A DNA stretch of 39,327 nucleotides from Pseudomonadota bacterium. GTDB taxonomy: Bacteria; Pseudomonadota; Alphaproteobacteria; Kiloniellales; J153. Positions 1-32,058 of this stretch are shown piece by piece. The notes under the pieces were generated by a model, which saw nothing but the letters and a program-made list of their open reading frames with translations, did no database searches and was not told where the DNA came from. The translations under genes were made by a program, and so were the position numbers. Positions within the stretch are counted from its first letter, which is position 1; each line of letters opens with the position of its first letter. The stretch covers positions 1 through 39,327 of the forward strand of contig JACZWN010000003.1 of the NCBI GenBank assembly GCA_022572105.1, given 5' to 3'.

Positions 1-72
1 GAAGGCGCTCAATGGGGAGATGGAGACGGGCGTGCCACCGGAATCACCGAGGAAGCAGAAACTGAAGACTAG
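1..72 (+). CDS. 3' end of an unidentified ORF running in from outside the window
   Basis: Frame 1 is open from base 1 (EGAQWGDG...ETED) to TAG at 70-72; too short to assign. Confidence 0.3.
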   Translation, partial: EGAQWGDGDGRATGITEEAETED

Positions 73-116
73 CCCGACGAAGAAACAGGTGCATTCAAAA
101 ACACGAGAGCCGGAGA

Positions 117-377
117 ATGGCTGATAATGACGATAATGATAGTGACATTGAGGCCGCTTTCTATCGGGTGATTGATCGCTGGGAAGCGGAAGTGTTGGAG
201 AGCTTGAGAAAGGACGCGCAAATTTCAGGGCGTCCGATTGATCGCCGCTTGTTGGATGCTCGGCTAGAAACATTTAGGCAAGAACATCTCCAATCTCCCA
301 CTATTCGGCATGAGCGGGAATTACGCGAACTTCTAATTTCAGAGCTAACAGAGAGACTTCGGAACAAAATTCGATAG
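117..377 (+). CDS. Hypothetical protein, 86 aa, acidic N-terminus, probably helical
   Basis: GGAG at 112-115 before the ATG; protein-like composition; no recognisable motif. Confidence 0.6.
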   Translation: MADNDDNDSDIEAAFYRVIDRWEAEVLESLRKDAQISGRPIDRRLLDARLETFRQEHLQSPTIRHERELRELLISELTERLRNKIR

Positions 378-380
378 CCA

Positions 381-671
381 GGTAGTGGGTCAGAGAGGAG
401 CGCATAGAATGCTTACTCGCAGCGAAATCCTAGAGAAGTTTGGATTGCCTGATCGTGCTGCCTTTGAAATGAACCCGGAACGCGACCCTCACGGAATATG
501 GAGGATCAAAGTCAGCTACGAAGGCGGCGCTGCCCTACACATGAGTCAGGGTCACGCGGCAAAGCTTGCTGATGTAATCCGTTCTGTCGATCAGCGTCTC
601 GCAGAACAGGTTGATGCCTGTATTGCAGAGGCGAGACGCTGATTCAAATATTTTCAAACTGACCTACTATC
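381..671. mobile_element. Non-autonomous IS1-family-like mobile insertion cassette carrying one passenger gene
   Basis: Terminal inverted repeats GGTAGTGGGTCAG (381-393) and CTGACCTACTATC (659-671), 11/13 complementary. 8-bp direct repeat GATAGCCA at 373-380 and 672-679. GGnnnTG ends with 8-9 bp duplications are the IS1-family signature. No transposase inside. Confidence 0.6.
409..642 (+). CDS. Hypothetical passenger protein, 77 aa
   Basis: GAGGAG at 395-400 precedes ATG 409, preferred over the GTG at 385 that lies inside the IR; ORF fills the cassette. Confidence 0.6.
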   Translation: MLTRSEILEKFGLPDRAAFEMNPERDPHGIWRIKVSYEGGAALHMSQGHAAKLADVIRSVDQRLAEQVDACIAEARR

Positions 672-1303
672 GATAGCCAGGTTGGTTTGCCAACCGGATA
701 ATTCCGACCGGTGATTACCGAGTGGCTGCCAAAAAAGTGTGTTTACGATCTAAACCAGACTTTTTGGGAATCGCCCGCCCGCGAGCCCACTTCCCAGCCC
801 CGCGCCGCTTCACCCTGGCCCTCAATGCCCGAAAGGGCATGGTTGCGATGGTCGACGCCCAAGCCGCTGCCCTCTGAGCGACGAGACGCACGGCCAGGCG
901 GCGCACCGACACCGCCAGGGCGCGTCTCTCACCCCGTATGCGCCGCGGGGCCTCCAGAGCCAAGATTGCGACAGCGGCGTGCTTTCCCGGGCTTGTGCGT
1001 CGTGGGCGCGGGCGCCAGAAGCCCGGGAAAGGTGCATAGCATCGCGATCCCGCTCCCGAAGCACCCGAGGTACCACCCGAGACCGAAATGCGCCCTATGG
1101 CCTCTCGCGAGCACGTCCGGGCGCGGCCTTTCGCGACCAATACGCGTGCGCGAGGCGAGAGAGGGGCGGATCGGGGGCGATGCGCGCCTCTCCCGGTATA
1201 GCGCCATTCGGCGGCCAAAAGGTAACCCTTCAATGACTAGGGCATATTCCTCGTCCGTACATGCGGCCCTCGCCCGAGCTCTCCAACTTCTAAGGCAGCC
1301 TGA

Positions 1304-1330
1304 AACCTCGTCCGACCGTCGGATGAGGTT
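1304..1330. repeat. 27-bp near-perfect palindrome
   Basis: AACCTCGTCCGAC-C-GTCGGATGAGGTT; one mismatch (G.U in RNA). Confidence 0.7.
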
Positions 1331-1353
1331 GGGTTGGCACGTTTACCAGGGGT

Positions 1354-1637
1354 GCCGTCTTAGCGAAAATTCCACTGGCGAAAAATCGCTAAGGGTTCAA
1401 CGGCAAAAACCCAGCAGCGGATTGCCGACGAATTGGGTGTTCCTAGGCGAACCGTTGCACGCCATCTTGGCCAAAATTCCACTGGCGAAAAATGGCCAAA
1501 CGGCGGTCTTAGCGAAAATTCAACAGGCGAAAAACCGCTAAACGGCGGCGAGGGCTCAACGCCGGACGCTTCGGGCGCTCACGACAACCGCCACCTTACC
1601 GAAAATTCAACAGGCGAAATTTCGGTGAACGGCGGCG
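1354..1637. repeat. Array of four ~45-bp repeats with conserved core AAAATTC(C/A)AC(T/A)GGCGAAA and self-complementary flanks
   Basis: Copies at about 1354-1397, 1461-1506, 1503-1550 and 1590-1637; cores start at 1365, 1472, 1514 and 1601. Confidence 0.9.
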
Positions 1638-1750
1638 GAGCGATACAATCGCCGGGTCCGAGAGACATTCGACGAATTGGCCTGAGTGAGCCAGGCGCGG
1701 CGGGTGTCAAGGGAACTGTCACAGAATAACGAAACGTTATATTGTGACGC

Positions 1751-2416
1751 ATGGCACGGACGCCCATCTTCGACAACCCGATGACGCCGGCCGAGCGCCA
1801 GCGCCGCTCACGCCAGGCGAAGCGCGAAGGTGTCCAATTGCGGGGCGGCCTTGGCGACCCGAAGTCCTTGGCGAGGATGCTCGGCGGCTCGCCTCAGTTC
1901 TATCGGGACATGTCCTATGTTCAGCAACACGGTGTTCCCGAATGGAAACAGTTGCTTGAAAACGGCAAGGGCAGAATGATCATCGGGGCGGCGGCTCAGC
2001 GCCAGATGGTCAAGTACCTGTCGCCGAAGGACCAACGCGACATGATCGAGATCGCGAAGGAGGACAAGAAACACGCGCTCGCGGTCTGGCGACTCTTGAA
2101 GGGGGCCTCGGAATCAAGTGAGACGCGGAAGGACTCGCCCTTCCGGCCTTGCCGTGCTTCCATCGGGGTGTTAGCAACCGGGGAGGCGATGATGGCTGAA
2201 AACAGCACCGGCCAAAAGGAGTCGAAGCGGCCATATGTTAGCGGCGTGTCTGACCTTAAAGTTACGCCAAACGGAGATACGTTGCTTTTCACCGTTCAAA
2301 CCGTGCCTATCCGGTTATCACCCACACCCACAACATCTAGGGTGCGCCCTCGCCTGCCGTTGAGTGTACACCCAACATATAGTGGGTGTGGGTTTCAACC
2401 GGATAGGCACGGTTGA
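1751..2416 (+). CDS. Phage/plasmid-type DNA-binding protein (MTPAERQRR motif plus ParB-like HTH region); 3' third probably a fused or degenerate second gene
   Basis: PMTPAERQRRSR motif; segment LARMLGGS...HGVPEWKQLLENG...AAAQRQ...LSPKDQRDMI resembles the HTH region of phage ParB-like proteins. Internal GGGAGG at 2181-2186 with ATGs at 2189/2192. Confidence 0.5.
   Translation: MARTPIFDNPMTPAERQRRSRQAKREGVQLRGGLGDPKSLARMLGGSPQFYRDMSYVQQHGVPEWKQLLENGKGRMIIGAAAQRQMVKYLSPKDQRDMIEIAKEDKKHALAVWRLLKGASESSETRKDSPFRPCRASIGVLATGEAMMAENSTGQKESKRPYVSGVSDLKVTPNGDTLLFTVQTVPIRLSPTPTTSRVRPRLPLSVHPTYSGCGFQPDRHG
2299..2414. repeat. 116-bp imperfect palindrome
   Basis: Perfect 18-bp arms AACCGTGCCTATCCGGTT (2299-2316) and AACCGGATAGGCACGGTT (2397-2414); inner 12-bp arms ACCCACACCCAC (2320-2331) and GTGGGTGTGGGT (2382-2393). 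Confidence 0.9.
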
Positions 2417-2586
2417 TTTGATGAGGCGGGGGCCAACAAATCCACTATTGGGCGACACGAGAGGATTTGCGGGCCATCACCCATTGCGGAGGTGAATTTG
2501 TGGGCGCACGCGCAGGAGCAGACTTGAAAATACGCCGGGCAGAATACACGACGGATTCCGCCTGGTTACCGTTCGACGCAACATTG

Positions 2587-2865
2587 TCACTCAATCACAC
2601 GCGGATGCTTTCTTTCGTCATGAAGCTCGTATCTCCCATCGGGTCGCAGGAATAGAAACTGCTTTGAGGCATTCCAGCGGTGTCTTGCTGGAACCAAATT
2701 GATGGTCCGGGCCATGAAGTGCTGCCAGATCGTATCGTCACTCCATTCCCCACGACTTTTGACACGGTCATATAACTCAGAACAGGAAATCACCTCATCT
2801 GCACTGATGACTTCCCTCATCACCTCATCGCAGCTTTCGCCATTATACCCCTTTGTTGCTCCCAT
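2587..2865 (-). CDS. Small hypothetical protein, probable winged-helix fold, partner of the nuclease
   Basis: 92 aa; ATG overlaps the upstream stop (TAATG); pattern ELYDRVK..W.DDTIWQH...N...FL....GRYEL suggests a winged helix. Confidence 0.7.
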   Translation of the reverse strand: MGATKGYNGESCDEVMREVISADEVISCSELYDRVKSRGEWSDDTIWQHFMARTINLVPARHRWNASKQFLFLRPDGRYELHDERKHPRVIE

Positions 2866-3668
2866 TAGGATTCTCCCTCACGGTCCTTGATCATCGCGGT
2901 CTCCTTGAGCACTTCCAGTTGGCCATCGTCAGACAGGAAGAAAAAAGCTACGTCGGAAACGAGGCTGCCATACCTCTCAAGCCACTTCTCCGGCACACGC
3001 CGGTCATTTCCAAACACGAGAAATTTCTTCTCGGCATCGCATTTTTCGAGGAGCCACACATATTCGGCGATCACCGAGAATTTCGCGGGCGGTAAGCGTT
3101 CTCCCTCCACCATGGTGAAATACTTTGCATCCCCGACCACTTTCCCATCGGATGATGTCATATCGAAAACCTTATTGACTCCCGGCGACTTTCCCGGGGC
3201 AAGACTTATTACGTAGGCATCGGACATCACCCAACGGGCCAGTTGCTCAAAGAGAGTGTGCGTTGACCCGGCGTGCCTATCTGACGCGGTTTGAGCTGCT
3301 GTAATTTCTGTCGTCTGTGCATCGAGTCCGCGTTTTTCATTTTGGACAACACCACCCTCGGACATCTCTCCGCCTTTTTCAGGAGCGCTCCTCAATACCC
3401 GCTCAAACACCAGCGTCTCATCGCTAAGATCGACGTTCCGCGCTTTCCATCCTGCCCGTTGCCAGGACTGGGCATGTGTATGACTCCCAGAATTGCTCTG
3501 GTTCGCCCACCACGCTTGGTAGGTCCTCGCACTCTTAGGCAGGGGGAAACCAAGAATCGCTTCAACTTCTGCGAACGATGCATGCCACCTATCCTTAACA
3601 AATATCCGCAAGAAGTCATGCAATGGAGAATATTTCCCTGTGACAGCGGTATTTCCTGTCTCGTTCAT
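2865..3668 (-). CDS. DUF7662-like N-terminal domain fused to a PD-(D/E)XK restriction-endonuclease-like domain
   Basis: N-terminus KYSPLHDFL...SFAEVEAILGFPLPKSA...WWAN...SWQRAGW; C-terminus FEQLAR...FDMTSSDGKVVGDAKY gives an E...D...D-x-K triad. GGAGA upstream of the ATG. Confidence 0.7.
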   Translation of the reverse strand: MNETGNTAVTGKYSPLHDFLRIFVKDRWHASFAEVEAILGFPLPKSARTYQAWWANQSNSGSHTHAQSWQRAGWKARNVDLSDETLVFERVLRSAPEKGGEMSEGGVVQNEKRGLDAQTTEITAAQTASDRHAGSTHTLFEQLARWVMSDAYVISLAPGKSPGVNKVFDMTSSDGKVVGDAKYFTMVEGERLPPAKFSVIAEYVWLLEKCDAEKKFLVFGNDRRVPEKWLERYGSLVSDVAFFFLSDDGQLEVLKETAMIKDREGES

Positions 3669-3700
3669 GGCAGAGTCTCCATGATACCCGTGTTTATATT

Positions 3701-27441: not shown

Positions 27442-28293
27442 ATGAACGGAATCGCAAAACTGATATTGCCGTTGGTCGGCACGTTGGTGCTGGCCGGCTG
27501 CGCCGGCATGGAGCTGCAAAGGGCACAGGAGATGTCGCCGCAAGGCTCGGCGTTCAATACCAACCTCTACGAGGGCTACGTGGACCTGGCGGCCTCGGAG
27601 TACGCCGAGGCCGACTATCGGGATTCCGATACCTTCGCCGCACGGGCGATCAGCGCCGGCAGCGGCCAGCTGGTCAGGCCCGAGCAAATCGACCGTCGCG
27701 CCCTGCCCGAGGACAAGGTCGGCGAGTTGATGGCCGCGCGCCGGCGCCTGGCGATGGCGCTGAGTACCGGCGCGTCGGAACGGAATCCCGCGGAAGCGGC
27801 CCGCGCCCAGGTGATGTTCGACTGCTGGATGCAAGAACAGGAGGAAAACTTCCAACCCGAGGACATCGCCCGCTGCCGCGGGGCCATGATGGCGGCCCTC
27901 GACATTTTGGAAATGAAGCCGGTCGCCATGGCGGCGCCCGCGCCGAAGCTGGCCCCGGTTCCGGGGCCTTACGTGGTGTTCTTCCAGACCGATAGCTTCG
28001 AGCTCAATGAGAAATCGCTCGCGATCATCAAGGACGCCGCGGGCAATGCATCGTCCGCGAAGGTCATGAAAGCGGTTCTGAGCGGCCATACGGATACCGC
28101 CGGATCGGACGGCTATAACAAGGGGTTGTCCCGCGCCCGGGTGATTGCCGTTGGCAACGCCCTGATGGAGGCCGGGGTGTCGCGCAAGCTCGTGCAAAAG
28201 GACTACTACGGCGAATCCAAGCTCCGGGTCGCGACGCCGGATGACACGGCGAACCAAGATAACCGGCGCGTCGAGATCAAATTCGACCGCTAA
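27442..28293 (+). CDS. OmpA-family lipoprotein
   Basis: LVLAGC lipobox; C-terminal GHTD..G...YN..LS..R...V and NRRVEI peptidoglycan-binding motifs; GAGGA RBS. Confidence 0.92.
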   Translation: MNGIAKLILPLVGTLVLAGCAGMELQRAQEMSPQGSAFNTNLYEGYVDLAASEYAEADYRDSDTFAARAISAGSGQLVRPEQIDRRALPEDKVGELMAARRRLAMALSTGASERNPAEAARAQVMFDCWMQEQEENFQPEDIARCRGAMMAALDILEMKPVAMAAPAPKLAPVPGPYVVFFQTDSFELNEKSLAIIKDAAGNASSAKVMKAVLSGHTDTAGSDGYNKGLSRARVIAVGNALMEAGVSRKLVQKDYYGESKLRVATPDDTANQDNRRVEIKFDR

Positions 28294-28309
28294 CATGCCG
28301 GGGCAGCAT

Positions 28310-28334
28310 CCCCGCCGTCGTCGAGGCGGCGGGG
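28310..28334 (+). terminator. GC-rich hairpin after the OmpA gene
   Basis: CCCCGCCGTC-GTCGA-GGCGGCGGGG; no U-tract. Confidence 0.35.
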
Positions 28335-28645
28335 TCGCCGCAACGGGAACGAACGCGGTTTTGCAATCGATGCCGAGGTGCGATTAGGCCTCGGTTGTGG
28401 GTCTCAGGCGCGCTGTCCCTTCCCTTTAATCAGTCCGGCCCGAACTCGGGTTCGGCCCAGTCTTCTATGGCGGATATGTGGATATCCGCGCCAGGTTAGC
28501 TCTTACCTCTCGACTCAGCGGCGCCGATCTGCCCTCCGCAATCGAAGTGAGCTGGGCAGTATGCCGTTTTCCCGAAAGCCCAATGAGTCTAAGCTAACGA
28601 GTGGTCCTAATAATTGGGGAGAGGCCCTACAAGGGGACGGCGACC

Positions 28646-29410
28646 ATGGAAAAGAGGAAGTGCTTGTTGAGCGCTGCCGCGTTTAGCGTCGCGGTCGTAC
28701 TATCTTGTGCCCTCACAGGCACGGCACAGGCTCAGTTTGATATCCTCAAGTCGGCAAAAGAGGCCCTAGGCTCGTTTGGAGGGGCAACCGGCGGCGCCGG
28801 CGCGCTCACCGACGCGGAGATCGGTGACGGCCTGATCGAGGCGCTAAGGGTCGGCACCGAACGGGTGGTCGGGCAGGTGGGCACAGCAGACGGCTACAAC
28901 CTGGATCCGGACATCCACATCCCGCTACCGGGAGTCCTCAAAGACGTGCAGAAGGTTTTGAAGTCCATCGGCATGTCCAGCCTTGCCGACGACTTGGAAC
29001 TGCGTCTCAACCGGGCGGCCGAGGTGGCTGCGCCCGAGGCCAAGGAGCTGTTCTGGCAGGCTATCAGCGAAATGACGCTGGACGACGTGCGGCAGATCTA
29101 CGAAGGGCCAGACGACGCCGCCACTCGCTATTTCCAGGATAAGATGACACCGCCGCTGGCCAAGCGCTTGCAGCCGGTGGTTAACCGCTCGCTAGCCGAC
29201 GTGGGAGCGATCCAGTCTTACGACAACATGATGGGGCAATATAAATCGGTGCCTTTCGTGCCCGACGTGAAAGCGGATCTGACCAGCTACGTGGTCGAGA
29301 AGGCTATGGATGGCCTTTTCTATTACGTCGCCAAGGAGGAAGCCGCGATCCGCAACAATCCGGCGGCGAGGACGACCGAGCTGCTGCAAAAGGTTTTCGG
29401 GGCGGGTTAA
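28646..29410 (+). CDS. DUF4197-family exported protein
   Basis: Signal peptide (AQA); GL.EAL..G, I.IPLP, LNRAAE.A, G.DDAAT.YF, GLF...A.EE..IR.NP.ARTT.LL.KVFG. Confidence 0.85.
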   Translation: MEKRKCLLSAAAFSVAVVLSCALTGTAQAQFDILKSAKEALGSFGGATGGAGALTDAEIGDGLIEALRVGTERVVGQVGTADGYNLDPDIHIPLPGVLKDVQKVLKSIGMSSLADDLELRLNRAAEVAAPEAKELFWQAISEMTLDDVRQIYEGPDDAATRYFQDKMTPPLAKRLQPVVNRSLADVGAIQSYDNMMGQYKSVPFVPDVKADLTSYVVEKAMDGLFYYVAKEEAAIRNNPAARTTELLQKVFGAG

Positions 29411-29612: not shown

Positions 29613-30926
29613 CTACCGGACCGACGGATCGCCGCCGGTGTCAATTCGGGCGCGAGCCTTCGCCGGCCCCGCATCGACATAGGTATACTCGATCTTCCTG
29701 AAGTCGCCGTACAACACGCGCAAATACGCCTCGGTTTGGTTCGGGCAGGCAACGTCGCCGCCGAGAAATGGGACCGTCGACGTCGGTAAGACGATCTCCT
29801 GCGGCACGCCGTAACCCCCGCTCTCGGTGGCCGGCATGGCGCCCTTGTGGCTCTGCCTTTCGAGCACGGCTTCACCGTGGCTGATCGCCCGCCGGTAAAT
29901 CATTATGTCGGCCCGGATTTCGCCGCGCAGGCGATTGCGTTCCCACCGGAAGGGCCATCGTTTCGGCGGATCGAATGAGATCGAGATGAAATCTTTCTTC
30001 TCGAAAAGGTCGACGAAGTAACCATCCCGCGCGCCACGTTCGGCGAGCCCGGCCGCCAACCGCTCCCAGGTCATGTCACCGTCGAGCAGAACCGACAGGT
30101 CGATGTCGTCCTCCCAATCGAGAAGCGCGCCGCGCTCCCTCACGGCGCCAAGAAGGCTGCCCCCCTCCAGCCAGTGCACGACCCCCATTTCGCTCAGGCA
30201 GGCGGCAACATGATGGCTGAGTTCCTTCATGTGCTCACGGCAGCAGGGCGCGGTGTTGAGGCCGAGACGGTTGACGTAGAGATTGAACGGGCAGGGTGGC
30301 GTCGATTTCCCACAACCCCTCCAACTGACGGCGCCCTTCGATAGCACCAGTTCGCGGATGCCATGGCGCCGTCGGAATGCCACGATATCGCCCTTCACCT
30401 GGGTCTCCAGGACCGACAGGTCGCGATCGCTCAAGGGATATAGCCGGCGCCGTCGGCCGGCCCAACGCTGGCGAAGGAACCACGTTAGTTCGATTGCCAT
30501 GGCGGCCGCCAGGACCGCCTGGAGCTTGATGTTGGGGATGGCCAAACCGGCGAGGAGGGCTGGGCCGAGCAGCCACAGTCCGGCGTAGTCACCGTGCTTC
30601 GCCAAGAATTCGACCATTCGGGAAGCCGGTCGGGAGGCCGGTCGGAAGGCGATTGCAGGGGCCGCGATGATGTAAAACACGACGACCACGAAGCCGACCG
30701 AGATGTAGAGGGCGGGACGGTCGAGGCCATCGGGCGACAGCGACACCAGCGCCACCGTAAGGGCCGCCAGAACCCCCGTCGCCAGGGATGCAGGCAAGCT
30801 GGGCGGATACCAGTTCCGTGGATATCTCAAGAGGCGGACGAAGGATAGATAAGTCGCCACATAAAGGGCGGCGGCGATCAGAGCGGCGATCACCTGGGTG
30901 GTCGCTGATGCGCCGATGCCGGTCAC
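29613..30926 (-). CDS. Membrane-anchored LicD/fukutin-family phosphotransferase, FKRP-like
   Basis: About five N-terminal TM helices; WLEGGSLLGAVR...WEDDIDL nucleotidyltransferase motif; C-x6-C...PCC cluster; YL...YG C-terminal motif. GTG start overlaps the upstream stop. Confidence 0.88.
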   Translation of the reverse strand: MTGIGASATTQVIAALIAAALYVATYLSFVRLLRYPRNWYPPSLPASLATGVLAALTVALVSLSPDGLDRPALYISVGFVVVVFYIIAAPAIAFRPASRPASRMVEFLAKHGDYAGLWLLGPALLAGLAIPNIKLQAVLAAAMAIELTWFLRQRWAGRRRRLYPLSDRDLSVLETQVKGDIVAFRRRHGIRELVLSKGAVSWRGCGKSTPPCPFNLYVNRLGLNTAPCCREHMKELSHHVAACLSEMGVVHWLEGGSLLGAVRERGALLDWEDDIDLSVLLDGDMTWERLAAGLAERGARDGYFVDLFEKKDFISISFDPPKRWPFRWERNRLRGEIRADIMIYRRAISHGEAVLERQSHKGAMPATESGGYGVPQEIVLPTSTVPFLGGDVACPNQTEAYLRVLYGDFRKIEYTYVDAGPAKARARIDTGGDPSVR

Positions 30927-31735
30927 AGCCTTTGTGTCTCACCTCGCGCCATGTCCCGTCCGATCGTCATTGCCGCGCGGCGGTTACCCTCCGCCGTCAG
31001 AATGCGCGGCAGGACCTCGGCATGGGCGCGCTCGATGTCGGCGGCGAAATCGATCTCGATCCAAGGCATGCCGGTGATGTCCTCGAATGCGAAGGTGCCG
31101 CGTGGCGAGGTCAGCAGAACATCGCGGATCGTCTCCTCGTAAGGTTCGTGGCGGCGGCCTTGGCGTAAGTAGAGCTCGGTCTGAAGGATGATCTTCTTGG
31201 CCACCTCGGCCGACAGCTTGAAAAAGCCCACCGATTCACCGCAGAAATCGAACTCGGCGCTCAACCATTTGCGGAACTCGACGATCTCGCCGTCCCGGAC
31301 ACATACTTTGACAGGCTCATCGCCCGGATCGAAGCCACGATCGAGGAGCAGGCAGTTCTGGTGGCGTGAGTTGACCAGACGCTCCACCAATGCCTCGTCG
31401 TAGAGGACGTCGGCGTCCATTAGGAGGACCGGCCCCCCGCAACACAATTCGTCGCGCAAGGCCCACAGGGTGACGATGTTGCCCGCTTCATAATCCTCGT
31501 TGAACACGGTTCGCACGTAATCCTGTGCCCCTAGGGCAGCGATCTGCCGCTCGATGTCTTGGTGGTGATAACCGACGCCGAGTACCAACTCGTCTATGCC
31601 GTGTCGCCTGAGAATTTCGATATGGAATTGTAGCAAAGATTTACCACCGAAGCGCAGCAAGACCTTCGGTGGAGGTTTGGTGGCCGTAAATCCGAGCCGG
31701 GCACCGATCCCGGCCGCCAACATAACTACCTTCAT
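30923..31735 (-). CDS. LicC-like (phosphocholine/sugar-alcohol-phosphate) cytidylyltransferase
   Basis: MKVVMLAAGIGARL...PKVLL, VGY, N..Y...N, MDADV, GESVGFFKLS, WIEIDFAAD; ATG 31735 with GGGGA upstream. Confidence 0.88.
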   Translation of the reverse strand: MKVVMLAAGIGARLGFTATKPPPKVLLRFGGKSLLQFHIEILRRHGIDELVLGVGYHHQDIERQIAALGAQDYVRTVFNEDYEAGNIVTLWALRDELCCGGPVLLMDADVLYDEALVERLVNSRHQNCLLLDRGFDPGDEPVKVCVRDGEIVEFRKWLSAEFDFCGESVGFFKLSAEVAKKIILQTELYLRQGRRHEPYEETIRDVLLTSPRGTFAFEDITGMPWIEIDFAADIERAHAEVLPRILTAEGNRRAAMTIGRDMARGETQRL

Positions 31736-32058
31736 ACGCCATTCCCCACAGCAGCGGCCGCTCACGGCGACGATAAGTCGGCGCCGCGTGCGCTGCCAGG
31801 CAGCGTGGCGCGCCTACCTTCCTCGACGAGTTGGGACGCATTGATACAGAAAGATCGGATCAATCTAACCGATCGCGCCCCATTTGGCTAATGGCGGGCA
31901 ATAGGGCGAGGCAAGGCGGCCCCTTTGCTTGCGCCAACCCAAGGGTGGCGCTGGTTTAGCGGTGGGTCGTCATGGACGGTGCCGGCTTGATCCGATACCG
32001 CAAAAGAAAGCGCATGGTCTCTTTATTGAGGGTCTGCGCTTGGCCGGATTTTCTGAGA

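Follow-up and report, generated by a model that had tools for sequence, protein, structure and literature searches.

A bacterial membrane-anchored LicD-family phosphotransferase with a predicted FKRP-type zinc-finger loop, encoded in overlap with a cytidylyltransferase

A pair of overlapping genes

The stretch of DNA analysed here (39,327 nucleotides, hereafter the window) carries two overlapping genes on its minus strand. The upstream gene, at 30923..31735, encodes a cytidylyltransferase of the LicC/PntC/IPCT group, and the downstream gene, at 29613..30926, encodes a membrane-anchored phosphotransferase of the LicD family, 437 aa long, with a GTG start and a putative zinc-finger loop of the FKRP type. 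In the ORF table the frame of the cytidylyltransferase is open from 30923 as far as a GTG at 31765; the start supported by the orthologue alignment together with the DNA is the ATG at 31735, the end coordinate of the original prediction, which yields a protein of 270 aa, with orthologues beginning at the MK of residue 11. Its TGA stop (30925-30923) and the GTG with which the phosphotransferase gene begins (30926-30924) overlap, so that the DNA and the ORF table both read GTGA at 30923..30926 on the minus strand, an arrangement that would couple the translation of the two genes. No sigma-70-like promoter was detected around the pair, where terminator-like sites occur at chance level, and an Rfam scan of the window returned no RNA families. 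The two reading frames, the overlap and the peptide strings quoted for the phosphotransferase had all been called in the original prediction and were all recovered. The observation of an FKRP-like phosphotransferase with a coupled cytidylyltransferase is confirmed, and its interpretation is supported with four qualifications, concerning mobility, the choice between LicC and PntC, the core tree and the protist relatives.

The membrane domain

Residues 1-157 of the phosphotransferase (30456..30926, minus strand) constitute an N-terminal membrane domain with five predicted transmembrane (TM) helices, as judged from AlphaFold2 (AF2), hydropathy and alignment. The AF2 model (mean pLDDT 91.8) places the helices at residues 8-32, 44-62, 70-92, 115-129 and 133-157, with a short extra helix at 103-110, which agrees with the hydropathy scan and with the prediction of about five helices ahead of the cysteine loop. 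An alignment of 13 sequences reveals the motifs YLSF..LLR.PRNW, EF.A.H and IE..W.LR on the presumed cytoplasmic side. Because basic residues are present in loops 1-2 and 3-4, and as RRRR after helix 5, the catalytic domain is expected on the cytoplasmic side. The stem domain of FKRP (FKRP_N, PF22921) has no match in the phosphotransferase at E <= 0.01 and is matched in the animal homologues P0208, P0213 and P0245, in line with the proposal that a multi-pass anchor takes the place of the stem. Residues 1-165, taken as the membrane domain, found no usable match in a protein atlas; hhalign aligned the membrane domain with its counterpart at the N-terminus of the protist relatives (probability 93.2%, E 3e-7, 148 columns).

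The catalytic core and the zinc-finger loop

Membership of the LicD family is borne out by a PF04991 match of 36.8 bits (cut-off 22.6), of which the aligned part covers only residues 248-280, and by the presence of a nucleotidyltransferase (NTase) fold, the hG[GS] motif, DxD and a distal Asp. The NTase-fold catalytic core, residues 230-425 (29652..30239, minus strand), was delimited from VIA-align and column counts. Its conserved hG[GS] motif is G255-G256-S257, followed by E272-x-D274-x-D276 at 30099-30113 and D340 at 29907-29909. In an alignment of 44 rows (32 bacterial and protist, 12 FKRP-type), D274 and D276 are each present in 44/44 and D340 in 43/44, while position 272 is Glu in 30 rows and Asp in 14.

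FKRP is the nearest solved relative of the phosphotransferase by sequence and by fold. It was the sole match at E <= 10 when all PDB sequences were searched with phmmer (6kaj, E 6e-14), and the resulting alignment bears out the FKRP motifs given in the original prediction and pairs them with those of the bacterial enzyme: WRGCGKSTPPC with WFGCNKETTRC, TAPCC with TPPCC, WLEGGSLLGAVR with WLEGGSLLGAAR, and WEDDID with WDYDVD (FKRP second in each case). The structural comparison suggested in the original prediction gave the same answer. FKRP chains fill Foldseek ranks 1-13 (E ~2e-11; following family, E 3.7e-4), and VIA-align superposes the AF2 model on FKRP with a Z of 20.9 and an rmsd of 2.7 A over 195 residues, against a Z of 12.8 for the second family; the NTase-fold matches LnuA and ANT(2'') score Z 11-13, from residue 229 onward.

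The core is preceded by the predicted zinc-finger loop, Gly204-Cys229 (30240..30317, minus strand). In FKRP this loop extends from Gly288 to Cys318, and its Arg295 is the residue that binds the acceptor, ribitol-phosphate, through its phosphate. The zinc ligands of FKRP are Cys289, 296, 317 and 318 (PMC6965139), and phmmer aligns them with Cys205, Cys212, Cys228 and Cys229, the presumed Zn ligands of the bacterial enzyme and the very cluster noticed beforehand at 30240-30314. All four are invariant in 44/44 aligned sequences from bacteria, protists and animal FKRP, and the loop pattern was matched by 0/119 ordinary LicD proteins retrieved, which agrees with the statement that typical bacterial LicD lacks it; conservation of the C4 loop is therefore more than chance. 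The position of Arg295 is occupied by Pro211 in the phosphotransferase. In this column the 32 bacterial and protist rows have Pro (28), Ala (3) or Thr (1), and the FKRP-type rows have Arg in 12/12. Full-text searches of the literature returned no bacterial or protist LicD protein described with the FKRP zinc loop.

Relationship to FKRP, classical LicD and protist proteins

The phosphotransferase lies outside the sampled ordinary LicD group both in a quick PMSF tree and in a careful LG+G4 tree, and protist proteins with five TM helices and a zinc loop form its sister clade (SH-aLRT 91 in the PMSF tree, 90/36 in the LG+G4 tree). The original prediction had staked itself on conserved cysteines and on a position apart from ordinary LicD proteins; the cysteines are conserved, and both trees keep the enzyme apart from the ordinary LicD proteins sampled. 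An AU test on the catalytic core did not reject a grouping of the bacterial clade with ordinary LicD (p 0.218, lnL difference 20.8). Because of this result the core tree is not proof of FKRP affinity, which rests on the loop, the pairwise scores and the fold; the claim of a protein nearer to FKRP than to classical LicD stands on these three grounds but not on the core tree. Classical LicD proteins differ further in being ~260-330 aa long, soluble or peripheral, and devoid of the Cys loop.

Comparison with human FKRP (PDB 6KAJ and related entries; Kuwabara et al. 2020, PMC6965139) reveals a common LicD/NTase-fold domain, C4 loop, hGGS motif, acidic-x-D-x-D and distal Asp, and probably also a common reliance on a CDP-activated donor from a dedicated cytidylyltransferase, which in animals is ISPD. 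In contrast, FKRP has an FKRP_N stem instead of five TM helices, a Cys2-to-Cys3 spacer of 20 rather than 15 residues, a Golgi-lumenal rather than a predicted cytoplasmic catalytic domain, an IspD-like rather than a LicC/PntC-like partner, and the acceptor-binding Arg295 where Pro is found here. Orthology to FKRP was rejected on account of the missing stem domain, the Pro at Arg295 and the predicted cytoplasmic catalytic domain. Among eukaryotes it is membrane proteins of protists (e.g. Thecamonas), and not FKRP, that are related to it most closely. Thecamonas trahens AMSG_04464 (P0181) and the EukProt proteins P0155, P0171 and P0162, whose source labels alone define the taxonomy of this group, share the whole architecture, the loop spacing and the Pro before Cys2; they are uncharacterised, only 24-27% identical, 470-570 aa long and extended at their N-termini.

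Distribution and mobility

The gene pair has a patchy distribution, being found in 2/31 related genomes and also in Acidobacteriota. Among 55 assessable loci the cytidylyltransferase gene is directly upstream in 41, elsewhere in the locus in 3, reduced to a remnant in 3 and missing in 8. Flanking genes differ between copies, and IS elements adjoin some of them. The system had been called mobile; patchiness, changing flanks, occurrence in another phylum and IS elements at some copies speak for horizontal spread, but no mobility genes were found beside the window's copy. Locus L013, labelled Acidimicrobiia, was not counted towards transfer between phyla, as the hit coordinates in its genome are those of G010, a genome of the same family as the window's.

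An acquired pair may also decay, and the GC3 of the two genes (0.74-0.78) is below that of their neighbours (0.84-0.97), while other copies lack the cytidylyltransferase or, at L020, are broken by IS elements. With the patchy distribution, these points would fit a decaying or non-functional remnant in the window's genome. However, both frames are unbroken, the overlapping start and stop are preserved, the catalytic and Cys residues are all retained, and there is 75-99% identity to 120 clusters of full-length homologues, which makes this reading very improbable.

The cytidylyltransferase and the likely donor

The cytidylyltransferase matches Pfam NTP_transf_3 (6.3e-11). In the PDB it is closest to Tde-PntC (6pd1, E 5.6e-16), aligned over residues 13-262 (250 residues, full length), and LicC (1jyk) comes second (4.4e-11), aligned over the N-terminal residues 7-110 only. 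The label LicC-like thus holds for the N-terminal part, but PntC, which is specific for 2-aminoethylphosphonate (AEP), is the better match and extends over the full length. Glu104 and Glu196 of Tde-PntC contact the AEP amine (PMC6697681), and the amine-contacting positions are acidic here as well, with D117 for E104/D105 and E210 for E196 of PntC/LicC; D117 is the Asp of the LicC type, not the Glu of PntC.

The donor favoured by the context is CMP-2-aminoethylphosphonate or one with another amino head group of this kind, because the PntC match is full length and both amine-contact positions are acidic, and because phosphonate genes accompany some copies of the pair. At L021 the order is PhnA, cytidylyltransferase, LicD, PehA-like hydrolase, PhnW and Ppm::NTP-transferase; at L123 a Ppm::NTP-transferase is situated 2.5 kb from the pair; and a PehA-like gene adjoins it in L019, L021, L095 and L117, PehA being a phosphonate monoester hydrolase (PMC5751337). 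Loci without an adjacent cytidylyltransferase are in genomes with Ppm over the cut-off in 4/4 cases, against 2/14 for loci with it, a contrast that also speaks for AEP; since L015, L016 and L018 are near-identical, the 4/4 amounts to about two independent events. The window's genome carries phnW-phnX and therefore handles AEP. The case is weakened by the lack of Ppm over the cut-off in 13/19 carrier genomes, several of them incomplete, and by the sole Ppm-like gene of the window's genome (contig C121), which reaches 267 bits against a cut-off of 319.55 and recurs in close relatives without the pair; no ppm was found within the window. It is further weakened by the LicC-type D117, by the top-ranking NCBIfam model for the cytidylyltransferase, IPCT/DIPP synthase (inositol-1-phosphate cytidylyltransferase; 8.8e-20, far under the cut-off), and by the use of CDP-ribitol in FKRP. 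Co-occurrence of PhnW was rejected as an AEP signal, the enzyme being over the cut-off in 13/19 carriers and 22/31 relatives.

In Haemophilus and Streptococcus LicC and LicD decorate surfaces with zwitterions, as does Mf1 in Mycoplasma. Were the present pair to act in this way, CDP-choline or CDP-ethanolamine would be the donor, and phosphocholine or phosphoethanolamine would be placed on LPS, a glycolipid or a lipid-linked glycan. This is compatible with the rank of LicC among the PDB matches and with D117, and the sole NCBIfam match of the phosphotransferase is Mf1 (NF045866), a glycolipid cholinephosphotransferase, although partial and far below the cut-off (20 bits vs 225, E 5.7e-4). Mf1 of Mycoplasma fermentans is likewise a LicD-family enzyme and equips a membrane glycolipid with a head group, but has neither zinc loop nor polytopic anchor. 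Two choline-kinase/APH-like genes are present on contig C159 of the window's genome, two SAM methyltransferase genes precede the phosphotransferase gene at L003, and PLP decarboxylases, which adjoin the pair at five loci and could supply an amino alcohol, point to an amine and not to AEP specifically. The LicC match, however, covers 104 residues as opposed to 250 for PntC, the recurrent neighbours are phosphonate and not choline genes, and no licA or licB gene adjoins the pair in any locus examined, nor any kinase or permease gene in the window, so we regard choline-type decoration as unlikely. The Lic and Pnt pathways (PMC6697681) share with this system the logic of a cytidylyltransferase and a LicD-family transferase, and phosphonate genes are found beside some copies; they differ in that neither licA nor licB accompanies the present pair and ppm is unlinked in the window's genome.

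Transfer of a polyol phosphate from CDP-ribitol, CDP-glycerol or CDP-inositol, added or polymerised on a lipid-linked glycan, would make the system resemble FKRP, fukutin and the capsule enzyme Cps7C in function. In known systems CDP-ribitol and CDP-glycerol are made by enzymes of the IspD/TarI and TagD types. The cytidylyltransferase belongs to neither, with TIGR00453 (IspD/TarI type) at 1.2e-3 only and PF01467 (TagD-type) absent among its Pfam matches. IPCT, in addition to its NCBIfam rank, matches with its structures over the full length (1.2e-7), but carries Met at a position that is acidic in PntC, LicC and the present enzyme. The closest characterised relative, FKRP, uses CDP-ribitol (PMC6965139), and the LicD-family capsule enzyme Cps7C handles polyol phosphate (PMC11666461); against this, the acceptor-binding Arg of FKRP is Pro in most bacterial and protist rows, and no polyol-phosphate synthesis genes were found near the pair in the window or the loci examined. 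Within lipid clusters of the hopanoid type, paralogues of the cytidylyltransferase (~50% identical) adjoin a gene for a CDP-alcohol phosphatidyltransferase, a pairing reminiscent of IPCT-DIPPS. Taken together, polyol transfer appears improbable.

Proposed mechanism

The preferred reading is a two-enzyme module for head-group transfer whose donor would be CMP-2-aminoethylphosphonate or one with a very similar amino-alkyl head group, a specific reading for and against which we find the evidence about evenly balanced. In the cytoplasm the cytidylyltransferase would join CTP to a small phosphate or phosphonate monoester, which gives a CDP- or CMP-activated donor. The phosphotransferase, held in the inner membrane by its five helices with the catalytic domain on the cytoplasmic side, would use E/D-x-D-x-D, the distal Asp and a divalent metal to move the phospho- or phosphono-alcohol from this donor to a hydroxyl of the acceptor, releasing CMP, while a C4 zinc site may, like that of FKRP, pin the loop down above the active site. 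The acceptor is probably a membrane lipid or a lipid-linked glycan, a lipid being suggested by the association of the paralogues with CDP-alcohol phosphatidyltransferases in hopanoid-type clusters; no acceptor-pathway genes are conserved beside the pair in the loci examined.

Biological and evolutionary significance

A large part of the dissolved organic phosphorus in the sea consists of phosphonates (10.1101/2020.11.04.368217), and in 2019 Rice et al. described the step following nucleotidyl activation of phosphonates as unknown (PMC6697681). A conserved pair found near ppm, phnW and phosphonate-monoester-hydrolase-like genes is a candidate for this post-activation step. A LicD-type AEP transferase surfaced in full-text searches only as a mention of 'LicD-like phosphotransferases' in the passages returned from PMC6697681.

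The zinc loop, so far described only in FKRP, turns up here both in protist proteins and in a bacterial membrane enzyme of wide occurrence; it is therefore older than the dystroglycan pathway and characterises a wider LicD subfamily. Animal FKRP could have arisen when an ancestral membrane domain was exchanged for the stem, genes having passed between bacteria and early eukaryotes. It is a tentative and rather doubtful proposition that the family provides both the missing transferase for AEP-type head groups on lipids or lipid-linked glycans of marine bacteria and, in its five-TM zinc-loop architecture, the form ancestral to FKRP. The bacterial enzyme offers a tractable model of this loop, which in FKRP is the site of the mutation Cys318Tyr of Walker-Warburg syndrome. 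A search of the atlas with the protist protein P0155 returned solely bacterial and eukaryotic LicD clusters.

Zinc-finger loop and fold of the transferase

The transferase belongs to the LicD family and combines a membrane anchor with an FKRP-type loop. The original prediction described such an enzyme from the sequence alone; its observation was confirmed and its interpretation is supported. Both predicted reading frames are real when read from the DNA, and the quoted peptide strings are present in the translated transferase (29613..30926, minus strand, 437 aa, GTG start), where the Cys cluster noted at 30240-30314 corresponds to Cys205, Cys212, Cys228 and Cys229. The only Pfam match is LicD (PF04991; 36.8 bits, cut-off 22.6), restricted to residues 248-280. 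Among all PDB sequences, FKRP (6kaj) was the sole phmmer match at E <= 10 (E 6e-14, query residues 182-319). In this alignment the GGS and acidic-x-D-x-D motifs match those of FKRP column by column, and the four Cys pair with FKRP Cys289, 296, 317 and 318 (zinc-ligand numbering from PMC6965139).

The AlphaFold2 model, built with a 44-sequence alignment as input, is of high confidence, with a mean pLDDT of 91.8 and a pTM of 0.88. The proposed fold comparison placed FKRP first by two methods: Foldseek ranks 1-13 are all FKRP chains (E about 2e-11), followed by LnuA (3.7e-4), and VIA-align superposes model residues 166-425 on FKRP with Z 20.9 and an rmsd of 2.7 A over 195 residues. The next family in VIA-align, LnuA and ANT(2''), reaches Z 11-13 and is aligned only from residue 229 on, past the loop.

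Conservation was assessed in 44 rows (16 close bacterial orthologues, 7 distant bacterial, 9 protist-type and 12 FKRP-type). All four Cys are kept in 44/44 rows, which answers the question of their conservation in homologues, as are D274 and D276; D340 is kept in 43/44, and position 272 is Glu in 30 rows and Asp in 14. The residue preceding the second Cys is Arg in 12/12 FKRP-type rows, equivalent to FKRP Arg295, which binds the phosphate of the acceptor (PMC6965139); the other 32 rows, bacterial and protist-type, have Pro (28), Ala (3) or Thr (1). These column counts suggest that the active site and a putative zinc site are kept and that acceptor recognition differs. The Cys-loop pattern occurs in 0 of the 119 ordinary LicD proteins retrieved.

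The transferase is not an FKRP orthologue: neither the stem domain nor Arg295 was found in it. In Pfam searches the stem domain FKRP_N is present in animal homologues and was not found in the transferase. The loop itself is shared with FKRP; PMC6965139 describes it as conserved only in FKRP orthologues and missing from fukutin. An FKRP survey (PMC8478517) covers animals only, and the grouping of fukutin and FKRP with LicD in PMC2794190 does not include the loop. The capsule enzyme Cps7C, noted as homologous to FKRP (PMC11666461), has a TPR domain and not a membrane domain. A literature search of main texts found no description of bacterial or protist LicD proteins that carry the loop.

Relatives and phylogeny

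A word-indexed protein search with the transferase gave 726 matches, the best 120 of which are full length and 75-99% identical; they come from metagenomes and from MAGs of Alphaproteobacteria and are annotated as 'LicD family protein' or as hypothetical. An exhaustive representative search gave 782 matches at E <= 1e-3, in which four groups were distinguished by inspection: bacterial orthologues with five TM helices, whose identity goes down to 37%; multi-TM proteins 470-570 aa long that bear the same loop; FKRP proteins, which have the stem domain; and further loop-bearing lineages (P0197, P0215, P0241, P0252, P0265). The second group is taken as eukaryotic because of its source labels, which cover four proteins only: P0155 and P0171 belong to one EukProt transcriptome and P0162 to a second, while P0181 is protein AMSG_04464 of Thecamonas trahens, encoded on a contig of 527 kb. 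The bacterial and protist membrane domains are homologous (hhalign 93.2%, E 3e-7, 148 columns).

Trees were computed from sequences cut from 30 residues before the GG motif, with the loop left out (62 rows, 253 columns). In a quick PMSF tree the bacterial clade (support 94) and the protist clade (95) are joined (91), FKRP forms a clade (99), and ordinary LicD lies on one side with support 77, which becomes 91 when two multi-domain proteins are included. A careful LG+G4 tree gave 99/93 for each of the bacterial and protist clades, 90/36 for their union, 100/99 for FKRP and 85/63 for ordinary LicD, with the deeper branching order left without resolution. Nesting, which would have spoken against the original prediction, was not seen: the transferase lies outside the sampled ordinary LicD proteins in these trees and, as judged from sequence, is not nested among them. 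Three changes of the loop are required on the LG+G4 tree. An AU test did not reject a bacterial clade held with ordinary LicD (p 0.218); kinship with FKRP therefore rests on the shared insertion, pairwise scores and fold, and not on the core tree. Two other proteins, P0233 (673 aa) and P0246 (440 aa), contain three and two tandem LicD domains, respectively, all without the Cys loop.

Membrane domain and topology

Five helices (8-32, 44-62, 70-92, 115-129 and 133-157) and a short one (103-110) are modelled by AlphaFold2, in agreement with the approximately five TM helices first proposed and, together with the missing FKRP_N, with a multi-pass anchor instead of a stem. Basic residues lie in loops 1-2 and 3-4 and in an RRRR motif after helix 5, which predicts that the N-terminus is out and the catalytic domain cytoplasmic. 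CTP-derived donors are made in the cytoplasm. The kept polar motifs of the membrane domain (YLSF..LLR.PRNW, EF.A.H and IE..W.LR) are on the predicted cytoplasmic side and may form part of the acceptor site.

The gene pair

The longest reading of the cytidylyltransferase gene (30923..31765, minus strand) encodes 280 aa from a GTG; its start is likely the ATG at 31735, because 12 orthologues start with the Met-Lys that is found here at residue 11. The expected GTGA overlap of its stop with the transferase start is seen at 30926-30923. Coupling was surveyed in 66 genome and metagenome loci that contain 60% or more of the transferase gene; in 11 of them the DNA on the upstream side is too short for a call. 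Of the 55 others, 41 have the cytidylyltransferase immediately upstream, 3 retain a C-terminal remnant, 3 have the gene elsewhere in the locus and 8 lack it. The enzyme would work as a LicD/FKRP-type phosphotransferase fed by a dedicated cytidylyltransferase.

Relics of 40-60 codons that match the cytidylyltransferase at its C-terminal end only lie directly 5' of an intact transferase gene at L015:363-482, L016:3467-3604, L018:3123-3266 and L094:1737-1916, and are leftovers of a deleted activator gene. At L020:6007-7302 a broken transferase gene reads as two ORFs, of 165 and 248 aa, between transposase genes of the IS110 and DDE_3 types, with the cytidylyltransferase 1.3 kb downstream on the opposite strand; the same inverted order occurs in L115, L116 and L119.

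Possible donors

The donor is most likely CMP-AEP or one with a similar amino head group; with the general mechanism included, we consider the chances about even. The cytidylyltransferase matches NTP_transf_3 in Pfam, and its best match of solved structure is PntC of Treponema denticola, a cytidylyltransferase for AEP (6pd1; 5.6e-16, residues 13-262). The gene had been called LicC-like: LicC is matched (4.4e-11), but over residues 7-110 only, and PntC is matched better. A choline or ethanolamine donor is possible but improbable. Amine-facing residues are Glu104 and Glu196 in PntC and Asp105 and Asp192 in LicC (PMC6697681); the window's enzyme has Asp117 and Glu210, kept in 12 orthologues and 3 paralogues. 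A polyol donor seems similarly unlikely. Inositol-1-phosphate cytidylyltransferase is a further solved relative (1.2e-7) and IPCT/DIPP synthase the best NCBIfam match, at 71 bits, below its cut-off of 580, and the first amine-facing position is Met in IPCT (Tyr in Ppm-fused transferase domains).

Gene neighbourhoods bear on the CMP-AEP reading. At L021 the order is phosphonoacetate hydrolase PhnA, cytidylyltransferase, transferase, PehA-like hydrolase, PhnW and a Ppm::NTP-transferase fusion, with PhnA and PhnW over cut-off and the PehA-like protein at 585 bits versus 900. L123 has such a fusion and an aminotransferase at most 2.5 kb away. PehA is a phosphonate monoester hydrolase (PMC5751337), and PehA-like genes, counted for phosphonate, adjoin the pair in L019, L021, L095 and L117; the proposed transfer would yield a phosphonate monoester. 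Ppm is over cut-off in 6/19 carrier genomes versus 3/31 relatives (3/30 without G022), all three of the latter without the transferase. Genome loci without an adjacent cytidylyltransferase (L003, L015, L016, L018) are in Ppm-positive genomes in 4/4 cases, about two events because L015, L016 and L018 are near-identical, versus 2/14 of those with one. The window's genome has phnW-phnX, so AEP reaches its cytoplasm.

Counted against phosphonate are the 13/19 carrier genomes in which Ppm over cut-off was not found, the equal frequency of PhnW in carriers and non-carriers (13/19 versus 22/31, or 21/30 without G022), five loci with a diaminobutyrate-decarboxylase-like PLP enzyme instead, and the Ppm-like gene of the window's genome, which scores 267 bits, lies on another contig and is common to relatives without the pair. 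This PEP-mutase-like gene (L024, G000:C121:1-2443; TIGR02320 cut-off 319.55) may encode 150 additional aa at the N-terminus, and it overlaps with the gene of a 2-hydroxyacid dehydrogenase that resembles phosphoglycerate dehydrogenase. G001 and G002 also have a gene of this sub-cut-off type.

Possible acceptors

No conserved glycan or lipid genes were found adjoining the pair among the loci. Genomes that lost the adjacent cytidylyltransferase hold a paralogue of it (48-53% identical), within a gene set conserved in L051 (G031:C34:20000-38000), L052, L053 and L054: an MMPL transporter, the cytidylyltransferase, a CDP-alcohol phosphatidyltransferase, an HpnA-type epimerase (over cut-off), an LPG-synthase-like membrane protein, LytB and an HpnH-like radical-SAM/DUF3463 protein. 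The G031 copy is 6 kb away from a Ppm::NTP-transferase and an aminotransferase. The cluster possibly represents a pathway that supplies hopanoid-associated lipids with phospho- or phosphono-head groups, and it would link this family of cytidylyltransferases to the head groups of membrane lipids. Because of this cluster and the polytopic anchor, we favour a lipid or lipid-linked acceptor. The G031 cluster also adjoins MlaC and a lipid A acyltransferase-like gene.

Distribution and genomic surroundings

The window's genome has a single copy of the transferase gene, which is present in 2/31 genomes of the relatives set, the window's genome included (2/30 without G022, which is flagged unpublished and has no match), and in 1/13 of the same family within that set. 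Among 21 loci in genome contigs the flanks vary, the nearest relative excepted. The two copies from Vicinamibacterales, of which one is located on a chromosome of 5.35 Mb, group as a clade (99) within the alphaproteobacterial copies, and a Pseudomonadales copy groups with a Rhodospirillaceae copy (100). IS-type transposases are matched in 10 loci. Horizontal spread of the pair is well supported, and this part of the earlier 'mobile' stands, by flanks and cross-group clades; a mobile element as carrier is not supported, and no mobility gene lies beside the pair in the window. The surroundings are ordinary chromosome (pyrB, plsY, dprA, topA, rnr, dinB, ilvE-like, copA/cueR, trpGD), and GC3 is 0.74-0.78 in the pair versus 0.84-0.97 in adjoining genes.

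Locus L013 has match coordinates identical to those of G010, of the same family as the window's genome, and shares copA, cueR, deacetylase, pair and aminotransferase with the window; its label 'uncultured Acidimicrobiia bacterium' is probably wrong. At window positions 27442-29410, OmpA/Pal-like lipoprotein and DUF4197 genes separate the ilvE-like aminotransferase from the transferase. In the nearest relative (L002/L013), as in metagenome loci L076, L080 and L084, nothing separates the transferase from the aminotransferase that follows it, so these two genes were gained here or lost elsewhere. At the contig end, positions 1-3700 have a GC content of 0.55 versus about 0.70 elsewhere; no Pfam family was found for ORFs 711-1541 and 1751-2416, and a DUF7662 protein (2865-3668, minus strand) is the sole Pfam-assigned ORF of this block, which looks foreign.
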